Below are positions 43,187 to 45,561 of a DNA stretch of 64,000 bases, in pieces; within the stretch, counting starts at the first letter, position 1; each line of letters begins with the position of its first letter. Made by a program: the position numbers and the translations under genes. Location: the IMG/VR virus record IMGVR_UViG_3300030103_004816, one strand, 5' to 3'. The notes beneath the pieces were generated by a model. The model made no database searches, was not told the DNA's origin, and worked only from the letters and a program-made list of their open reading frames with translations. The DNA comes from a virus.

Positions 43187-43217
43187 GGCGCTACGTCGAC
43201 GGTAGCGCCTTTTTTTT
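43187..43217 (+). terminator. Intrinsic terminator
   Basis: GGCGCTAC-loop-GTAGCGCC followed by a T-run. Confidence 0.85.
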
Positions 43218-43281
43218 GTCTAATTTCCAAAAGCTGCAATATTATTATCTTTTTTAATAAAAATCAACTACTTTAAGAAAC

Positions 43282-43926
43282 AAAAAAAAGCAGACCTTGC
43301 GATCTGCTCTTCCCATCATTTCACTAATAAGGAGGTAATATGATGTTTAAACTAAGTGGCAGGATACTTTTCACCCCTGCCATATTTCACTCTTAAGCTA
43401 TTAAGAGTCGGGATCGGGGTCCGCGCGAAGGTAGGGGTAGTCCAGTTATCGTACGTTCTGGGGTCACCTACTAAGCTACGCTTATATTTTGCCCTCCCGT
43501 TTTAAGGATTCTGAAAGGAACGCTAATTCGGATTCAGATCTTAAAAAACTCAAGGTGGGGCCAACAACCTGACTCAATTGGAATGTAATTGTACGGCCAG
43601 CACGATTGACTTTTTATATCGCGGCTGCATAAGGTGTATCATTAAGATCGCCTCTGCCTGACTCTACCGCTGCTTCCCATACATTTAAGTCGGTTTGACA
43701 CGGTTCAGTGTTCCAATTACAATCCTCACAGATTGCTGCTTAGCTGGATGAAATCTCTACGTTCACAAATTGGTTGATTAAGCCAATCCATTTACTACGA
43801 GGTCCCAGTCGTGGAGATCACCTTTAAGCACTTCCACCGCTATCTTAATTCAATCAAGGTATTTCAACTTTGATCTAGCTAAGTAAGCTCTTCAGCGCGC
43901 GACGTTCATATAGCCCCTGCTAAGTT
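43282..43926 (-). ncRNA. Large (~645 nt) structured non-coding RNA, family unassigned
   Basis: TTGCCA-18-TATAAT promoter (43962-43933); terminator GCAGATC-GCAA-GGTCTGC-T8 (43307-43282); no ORF >=60 aa; raised GC; many local and long-range helices. Confidence 0.75.
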
Positions 43927-44020
43927 AAAACTATTATACGCGCTTTTTAATACAAATGGCAACTACTTTAATGCCCCACAGTCCCTTTTTATTCGGAATA
44001 AGACTAATTCTTATTTAGAA

Positions 44021-44436
44021 AAAAAGTTGCACTTTCCTCAAAAATAATATAATATTGCAGCTTTTTATATAAAATTGAAATAATATTAGAATAAAGTTAT
44101 AATAGAAATATAATTAAAAAGGAGTAAATTATGTTATATTTAAAAATCATTTCAAATCTTATTATCTTATCTATTCTAGATCTTCACACTCATTTCATTA
44201 AACAACAAACTATTCTATTATCTAATTATACAAATCACCCTCTTCTATTTTCTAATAACAATATAGAAGAAGATTACATAATAGGGTTTCAAATTTACTT
44301 AAACATATTATCTAAATTTAAACTATTATAATATTTTAAAAAAAGTTAAAAAAGTAGTTGCATTTTATTTTAAAATATTATAATATTGCAACTTTTTATA
44401 TAAATTTGAAATAATATTAGAATAAAGTTATAATAT
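44021..44436 (+). repeat. Imperfect ~85-bp direct repeat (44021-44105 and ~44352-44436), each copy carrying two tandem promoters
   Basis: AGTTGCA..TAATATTGCA.CTTTTTATATAAA.TTGAAATAATATTAGAATAAAGTTATAATA present twice. Confidence 0.85.
44131..44331 (+). CDS. Hypothetical 66-aa protein, G-depleted coding strand
   Basis: TTGAAA-17-TATAAT promoter, AAGGAG RBS; 8 G in 201 nt. Confidence 0.6.
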   Translation: MLYLKIISNLIILSILDLHTHFIKQQTILLSNYTNHPLLFSNNNIEEDYIIGFQIYLNILSKFKLL

Positions 44437-44457
44437 GGTTTTAATAAGGAGAAAGAT

Positions 44458-44682
44458 ATGAAAATTGTAATTAGTGTTAGTAATGAAAAAGATATGTTAG
44501 GTAGTGTTGAAGAAAATAGTTTGAGAGAAATTGTTTTAAGTGATGATGTTATTAATGAATTTAAAATGAAATTTGAATGTGTTGGTTTTGAAAATAGTTT
44601 AGAAGAATTTATTAGTAATGATATTAAAGATTTATTAAGAATGGAAATTGAGGATGGTAAGTATAATTTATTTAATTATTGA
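44458..44682 (+). CDS. Acidic 74-aa protein, cytosine-free gene
   Basis: TTGAAA-17-TATAAT promoter, TAAGGAG RBS; no C; no P/A/T/Q/H residues. Confidence 0.75.
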   Translation: MKIVISVSNEKDMLGSVEENSLREIVLSDDVINEFKMKFECVGFENSLEEFISNDIKDLLRMEIEDGKYNLFNY

Positions 44683-44734
44683 AATAATAATAAAATAGAG
44701 TTATAATGTTTATATAATTTAAAAGGAGAAAATT

Positions 44735-45079
44735 ATGATAGTATTTGATAAAAGTGGATTTGTAAATTATGTTAGAAATAATGATGAGTTGTATATTGAT
44801 AATGTAAGTGTTGGTGGTGAAAATGATAATTTTGATAATGATATGGAAATTGTTAATAGTAGTTGGGATGGAAATGGAGTGTATTGTATTAAGTATGGTA
44901 GTAGGGGTGAAGTTGATTTTGAAAGAGTTAATTTTAGTGATGAATTAAATGAGTGGGATGAAAATTTAGATAGGGGAGATGAATTTAGATTAATGAGAAA
45001 TGATATTGGTAATAGTTATGTTGATTTAAGTTTTGGTGAAGAAGATATTAGATGTTATTTTATAATTGTGGAGGGGTGA
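44735..45079 (+). CDS. Acidic 114-aa protein, cytosine-free gene
   Basis: TTGAAA-17-TATAAT promoter, AAGGAG RBS; no C; no P/A/T/Q/H residues. Confidence 0.78.
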   Translation: MIVFDKSGFVNYVRNNDELYIDNVSVGGENDNFDNDMEIVNSSWDGNGVYCIKYGSRGEVDFERVNFSDELNEWDENLDRGDEFRLMRNDIGNSYVDLSFGEEDIRCYFIIVEG

Positions 45080-45080
45080 T

Positions 45081-45230
45081 ATGTTTGATTATGTTTTATT
45101 AAGATATAAATTAGGTGAATGTATAGATGTATTGTTTGATGATGATTGTAATATAGATGAAGATAAAAAAGATGAATTAAATAATGAAATACAAAATATT
45201 ATTGATAAATTGGGAGGGGAAATATATTAA
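45081..45230 (+). CDS. Acidic 49-aa protein with a single C
   Basis: GGAGG RBS; MFDYVLLRYKLGECIDVLFDDDCNIDEDKKDELNNEIQNIIDKLGGEIY. Confidence 0.65.
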   Translation: MFDYVLLRYKLGECIDVLFDDDCNIDEDKKDELNNEIQNIIDKLGGEIY

Positions 45231-45561
45231 TATATTTCTTGCACTTTACTTAAAAATAATATAATATTGGGGGAATTTTGTGGTGGGAAAAATAAATGAA
45301 AAAGTAGTTGATTTTTTTGTTGTTTGAATATAATATTGCGAAGTTAAGAATGATTCTTATTTAGATAATTTTATTATATTTTTTTTGAATTTTATTTGAA
45401 TTTTATTCTCCCCCCCAATTTGGTTGAGCGCTCGCTGTCTCCCGGGTGACTGGAAACTTTCGACTCCTGGGAACCGGAGAGTTTCTCTCTGAGGTTCGCT
45501 GACTAAACCCCCGCGGGTTGCAATATTATACTATTTTCGACAAAAGTGCAACTTGAGACAC

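Follow-up and report, generated by a model that had tools for sequence, protein, structure and literature searches.

The PeSL (promoter-early stem-loop) cassettes of the T4-type phages RB49 and phi1 consist of repeated early promoters around ORFans that shuffle by recombination (Arbiol et al. 2010, PMC2839356), and no letter rule has been described for them. A second relevant background is the Rho-avoiding purine bias of coding strands and the targeting by Rho of C-rich, G-poor, T-rich RNA (Dierksheide et al. 2026, PMC13323073; Nadiras et al. 2018, PMC6144790); Rho terminators separate early units in T4 (PMC2988021). Messages that lack one letter or motif are otherwise familiar as engineered constructs, namely the synthetic G-less and C-less cassettes for in vitro transcription and the ACA-less, MazF-resistant mRNAs. 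Literature searches for cytosine-free or letter-free phage genes found no description. We analyse here a 64,000-nucleotide stretch of viral DNA (IMG/VR record IMGVR_UViG_3300030103_004816, "the window"), in which a small gene with very little G lies directly upstream of a cassette of early genes with no C at all.

The window is part of an uncultured T4-type myovirus with 34% GC that carries baseplate wedge proteins, NrdA, PhoH, T4 RNase H, several 2OG-Fe(II) oxygenases and DUF932. Its nearest cultured relatives are Caulobacter phage Cr30, Stenotrophomonas phage DLP6 and the Sinorhizobium phiM12 group, at about 36% identity in a baseplate protein. Megablast of the island (the leader gene, its promoters and the C-free cassette) against 50,697 phage records gave no match, tblastn of the cassette and leader proteins against phages gave nothing real, and tRNA and Rfam scans of the window gave nothing. 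Pfam searches with 20 window proteins showed no base-modification enzyme, although the window is only part of the genome, and a search for a guanine-modifying TGT/DpdA reached only a 27-kb fragment and is uninformative. A scan of viral contigs with the 114-aa cassette protein found no relative, and a scan with the promoter pattern found only one contig already in hand (L002, below) plus chance hits.

The observation in the earlier note, of a G-depleted gene that shares its promoter block and RBS with the first gene of a C-free cassette, is confirmed. ORF 44131-44331 on the plus strand has A80 C32 G8 T81, and its eight G lie in the ATG, in GAT (D17), in GAA GAA GAT (E46 E47 D48) and in GGG (G52); seven are forced by the amino acids and only one is avoidable. 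The 66-aa protein has no A, V, R, W or C, and TCTAGATCT, which the note took to weaken pure restriction-site avoidance, is present at 44175-44183. A 90-nt promoter block is repeated directly at 44015-44104 and 44346-44435, 88% identical and 331 nt apart; the first copy holds a TTGCAC...TATAAT-ATTGCA block (44027-44059) followed by TTGAAA-17-TATAAT (44075-44103), a sigma-70-type match that scores 11/12, and the second copy, which drives the C-free cassette, has TTGAAA-17-TATAAT at 44406-44434. TTGAAA-17-TATAAT occurs three times. Each copy is followed by an AAGGAG-type RBS; that of the G-poor gene is AAGGAG at 44119-44124, 6 nt before the ATG, and the same motif stands in front of every homologue. 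The plus strand then has no C for 799 nt, from 44393 to 45191, a run that holds genes 44458-44682 and 44735-45079 and most of 45081-45230. Two further copies of the first promoter block, at 45239-45338, have no ORF behind them, and each is followed by a G-run (ATTGGGGG...) and by the palindrome TAAGAATGATTCTTA, which also occurs at 43999-44022 and in the related contigs L002 and L023.

The GC skew goes from -0.60 in the ORF to +1.0 in the C-free run, and this is far beyond chance: the coding-strand skew of 76 ORFs of the window is +0.175 +/- 0.136 (z = -5.7), and none of 240 coding 201-nt segments has fewer than 23 G. The note's interpretation, which offered either a paired G-poor and C-free design tolerant of different NTP shortages or chain terminators, or a skew inversion marking a replication origin, is only partly supported. 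For the origin it had named cumulative skew as the criterion, and over the 64 kb, which is not the whole genome, cumulative GC skew shows only a local bump at 44-46 kb and keeps falling on both sides. The region is AT-rich, has many promoters and is flanked by non-coding RNAs, but the skew belongs to a protein-coding gene family under purifying selection and moves with the gene when this is inverted or placed in another operon (below), and a C-rich RNA on a G-rich template is the unfavourable polarity for R-loops. An origin, whether a skew switch or a T4-type R-loop origin, is thus largely refuted. The idea that the G-poor stretch is really a C-free gene of the other strand also fails, because no minus-strand ORF of 30 aa or more lies in 44131-44331.

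A related IMG/VR contig, L002 (loci in other contigs are likewise given L numbers), carries a flanking gene that is 79% identical and has an 853-nt C-free run in the same place, and the first ORF of that run, 68 aa long, aligns end to end with the window ORF (BLASTP E = 1e-6). A profile of the two found 33 metagenomic proteins of 48-69 aa and an exhaustive HMM search added six more representatives; about 40 marine metagenome homologues of 61-69 aa exist. We call this family the leader gene, because in every locus it is the first gene behind the island's promoters. It splits in two with 100/100 support: clade A (MYYFKFVYNF... and MFYFKF...) holds most members, and clade B (MLYLKIISNL...) holds the window ORF and relatives 71-94% identical to it. 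Within clade B dN/dS is 0.07-0.26 while dS reaches values above 1; the protein is therefore made and is under purifying selection. The family has no match in Pfam, PHROGs, the ESM Atlas or cultured phage genomes, and an AlphaFold model from a 32-sequence alignment shows only two helices at a pLDDT of 62.6, too low for a fold search; the protein is probably two-helical and its function is unknown.

Conservation of the G-depletion in homologues was the note's own criterion, and DNA retrieved for 20 loci shows that it holds in the close homologues but not across the family, which is written in two alphabets. Clade A genes have 0 C in L002, L024-29 and L036-37 and 2-4 C in L030-31 and L034-35, and they lie inside C-free runs of 0.5-1.06 kb. 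In clade B, observed against forced G is 7/7 in L023 (32 C), 7/7 in L032 (27 C), 6/6 in L033 (23 C), 7/7 in L021 (40 C), 8/7 in the window (32 C), 12/10 in L040 (28 C) and 7/6 in L038. Given the amino acids and the codon usage of the window, which was applied to all loci, about 5.5 avoidable G are expected per gene and 0-2 are seen, with P from 0.0015 to 0.14 per lineage; the lineages are related, so these P values are not independent. Silent sites are saturated between the lineages, so the lack of G is being maintained and is not inherited history. Most of the depletion is at the protein level, where Val, Cys, most Asp/Glu, most Gly and other G-requiring residues of clade A are replaced by Ile, Leu, Ser, Thr, His, Gln, Asn and Lys. 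A CACCCTC stretch considered as a conserved anti-SD motif in the leader is present in only three of seven lineages.

Two further copies are informative. P0037 (L038/L039) is an intermediate, in which the first 48 nt are C-free with G, as in clade A, and the rest is G-poor and carries C (totals C14 and G7), with a 1,019-nt C-free run following. The tree is unrooted, so C-free being ancestral rests on its wider spread and on this intermediate form. The L019 copy, the only one that sits inside an ordinary operon (ferredoxin-like, Pyr_excise, DUF932), is relaxed, with 14 G against 9 forced (P = 0.27).

Only the leader has changed alphabet. The genes behind it, such as those for the window's 74-aa and 114-aa proteins, belong to families shared between clade-A and clade-B phages and are C-free in both, while members of the same families outside the run carry 8-18 C; the letter rule therefore belongs to the position or transcription unit and not to the protein family. 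The family of window gene 44458-44682 (homologues at L027:7026-7229, L030:3241-3477, L036:2727-2948 and L038:1508-1729) is C-free inside the run and carries 8-18 C when it lies a few hundred bases further downstream, and C counts per ORF cluster at 0-2 or at 8 and above, with little in between. In clade-A phages a small gene of 46-52 aa (L027:5754-5900, L030:2304-2462 and L037:1651-1791, minus strand) reads away from the cassette and is itself strongly C-poor on its own coding strand, with about 27-30 G against 9-11 C per 100 nt, so the depletion of C extends to both arms of the divergent promoter region. We note that clade-A contigs also encode a ribosomal protein S21 homologue, ThyX, an N6/N4 DNA methyltransferase and DUF6552 close to the island (L024:10709-10945, L027:10760-10996).

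The gene and its promoter form a movable module. In L023, the closest relative (94% protein identity), window 44074-44362, which comprises the second promoter, the RBS, the gene and the start of the next promoter block, is present at 93% identity but in the opposite orientation to the conserved flanks. The break coincides with promoter-repeat sequence (AAAGTAGTTGCA), and the module is bounded by inverted repeat 43945-43969 / 44351-44375 and by the direct promoter repeats. L023 has beside the leader two extra small genes of normal composition (L023:1346-1706), each behind a TTGAAATGATATTATAATAT-type promoter and separated from the leader by a bidirectional-looking hairpin (AGCTGTCTTC-AAA-GAAGACAGC), and it lacks the window's 74-aa C-free gene. 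The large non-coding region to the left of the island (43211-43969, minus strand) is conserved at 82% in L023 and about 69% in L002 but has no Rfam match; its promoter shares the AAAGTAGTTGC motif with the island's promoter blocks, and it is here that the L023 rearrangement joins. A rule attached to one DNA strand followed by an inversion does not explain the mirror image, since four or five well-diverged lineages (window, L021, L032, L033, L040) keep the G-minimal gene in the same orientation as the C-free cassette. A local mutational bias, for example cytosine deamination on the strand exposed by strong antisense transcription across the leader, could also keep silent sites free of G, and weak minus-strand promoter-like sites lie just downstream at 44391->44362 and 44404->44377. 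However, the bias is confined to about 220 nt, is opposite in sign to that of the adjoining cassette, travels with the module in both orientations and in different backbones, and relaxes in L019 although that copy keeps its promoter, and promoter-like matches are common in this AT-rich DNA (32 found against 13.5 expected); we consider this reading very unlikely.

The "paired design" of the note is real only as a derived state, since in most relatives the leader is C-free like the rest of the cassette and there is no G-poor partner. Prokaryotic viperins make ddhCTP, ddhGTP and ddhUTP, and an agent acting at each G (a ddhGTP-type chain terminator, GTP shortage or a G-specific RNase), with a matching agent at C for the cassette, fits the fact that selection counts every avoidable G and that the cassette shows the same per-site behaviour for C. 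Transcription under such conditions was not assayed, and the idea fits poorly: a change in the host's agent should recode the whole cassette, but only the leader flipped, and 7-12 G remain, including three in the SD and one in the ATG, so that protection would be partial. The sigma-70-type promoters imply reading by host RNA polymerase, whose sensitivity to ddhNTPs is not established, and GTP shortage would also stop translation. We regard this reading as unlikely.

A more general possibility is that G and C may never both be used in one early message, clades A and B being mirror solutions to a single constraint against G:C pairing, or against motifs that need both letters, either for fast translation of unstructured RNA or for escape from a host factor that senses or cuts structured RNA or GC-containing sites. 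The product of G and C counts is small in every island copy (0 in clade A, 7x14 in P0037 and about 7x32 in clade B, against about 38x29 for a typical gene of this size), GC and CG dinucleotides are absent from all island clade-B genes, and the leader is the most AT-rich part of the island in all lineages. The leader message is predicted to fold at -20.4 kcal/mol, against -30.8 +/- 4.4 for versions with the same G+C positions split evenly between G and C, and the C-free run at -105.9 against -124.6 +/- 8.1, so both alphabets weaken folding moderately (15-35%, z about 2.3). Against this, nothing visible stops read-through in the window, and a joined leader-cassette RNA is predicted to be more structured because the leader's C would pair with the cassette's G, gaining -48.7 kcal/mol of pairing with 24 G:C pairs, against -10.5 for a C-free leader; seven or eight G coexist with 32 C, and GATC, TCTAGA and AGATCT are present; and graded benefits such as weaker structure do not easily explain strict zero counts. 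This reading is possible but doubtful. If such a rule, which is not described in print, does govern these cassettes, one protein family has been rewritten from one three-letter alphabet (A, G, U) towards the other (A, C, U), which would point to a host or phage activity that acts on early RNA, or on its DNA, only where both letters are available, or alternatively to paired immunity against C-directed and G-directed attacks; this too is speculative.

What the analysis establishes is that 44131-44331 is a translated early gene for a small protein, in a family that normally forms the first gene of the C-free early cassettes of a group of uncultured marine T4-type phages, and that in one sub-lineage (the window plus at least six other lineages, one of them very common in ocean metagenomes) it has been recoded so that G is held at, or within two of, the minimum required by its amino acids, with C used instead, a rule that follows the gene's own transcription unit. 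The cause was not established, and what follows is inference. Our best guess, in itself a doubtful one, and one that leaves the explanation as a whole tentative, is that the leader has become a separate C-bearing message, from which G is excluded so that the RNA stays single-stranded, and which is meant to end, by Rho or a hairpin, before the cassette, while the C-free cassette would offer Rho nothing to hold. Such single-stranded, C-bearing RNA is the textbook substrate of the termination factor Rho. The predicted cost of read-through gives a reason to end the message first, and in L021 (335-375) and L040 (4175-4215) an intrinsic terminator, a 9-bp hairpin plus T-run (AAACCTCAA-TTAA-TTGAGG and its L021 equivalent), straddles the leader's stop codon, its 5' arm using the gene's C and its 3' arm G just after the stop; a C-free unit cannot build such a hairpin. 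The leader's C - G of 24 per 201 nt exceeds that of all 240 coding segments (maximum 18). On the other hand, YC dimers are not enriched over shuffles, and the longest (YC)N9-13 chain is only 2-5, none reaching the six expected of the primary binding sites, which is above the typical coding strand but no better than average antisense RNA of this genome. Enrichment of C at silent sites is inconsistent between lineages, so the steady signal is G avoidance rather than C gain, and the window itself has no terminator hairpin between leader and cassette. The host is unknown, so it is not shown to have Rho, although the nearest cultured relatives infect Proteobacteria, and no transcript data, including Rho-dependent 3' ends, were examined. 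The C-free rule (0 C in about 1 kb) looks stricter than Rho avoidance alone would need, and it is unexplained why a Rho-blind leader should turn into a Rho target. The remaining share of the likelihood is left to unknown causes.

The C-free early cassettes have no published explanation, and this gene is a natural experiment on them, with the same promoters, position and protein family but the forbidden letter swapped. Whatever shapes these three-letter genes cannot simply be a ban on C: neither a "C is toxic in early messages" rule nor a "template G is unreadable" rule holds for every early gene of these phages, replication skew is excluded, and selection works on single letters of a single small transcription unit. 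Matched C-free, intermediate and G-minimal versions of one gene are available as test material for Rho, chain-terminator, RNase and folding studies.

Compared with the C-free cassettes, the gene shares the island, promoters and gene pool, but with 32 C it is not a C-free unit (its clade-A homologues have 0-4 C); its polarity is reversed, and avoidance is close to as low as the protein allows (6-10 forced G) rather than zero. The synthetic G-less, C-less and ACA-less messages are engineered, whereas this one is natural, is kept by selection and still codes for a conserved protein. Relative to Rho biology, the C-free cassette is the extreme of Rho avoidance and the leader has the composition of a Rho target (C16% G4% T40% over 201 nt) and satisfies the requirement of a Rho utilisation (rut) region for at least 60-80 nt of C-rich, G-poor, weakly structured RNA, but here the bias is absolute, local and attached to single small transcription units, YC spacing is not optimised, and no Rho dependence has been shown. 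The module behaves like the PeSL cassettes in that repeated strong sigma-70-type promoter blocks stand in front of small ORFans in a plastic region, and modules are exchanged, lost and reoriented between close relatives, with the cassette families occurring in different orders and sets in different phages. As to the stem-loop, the hairpin part is weak or absent in the window, which has only a 6-7 bp GTTGCA/TGCAAC inverted repeat around the first promoter block and no terminator-like site between 44000 and 45400, while L021 and L040 have the hairpin at the leader's stop, so that the evidence points neither way on a terminator or attenuator within the motif, and encapsidated mini-circles were not looked for. 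The locus thus resembles PeSLs in its repeated promoters and modular shuffling, and differs from them, as described, in its letter rule.
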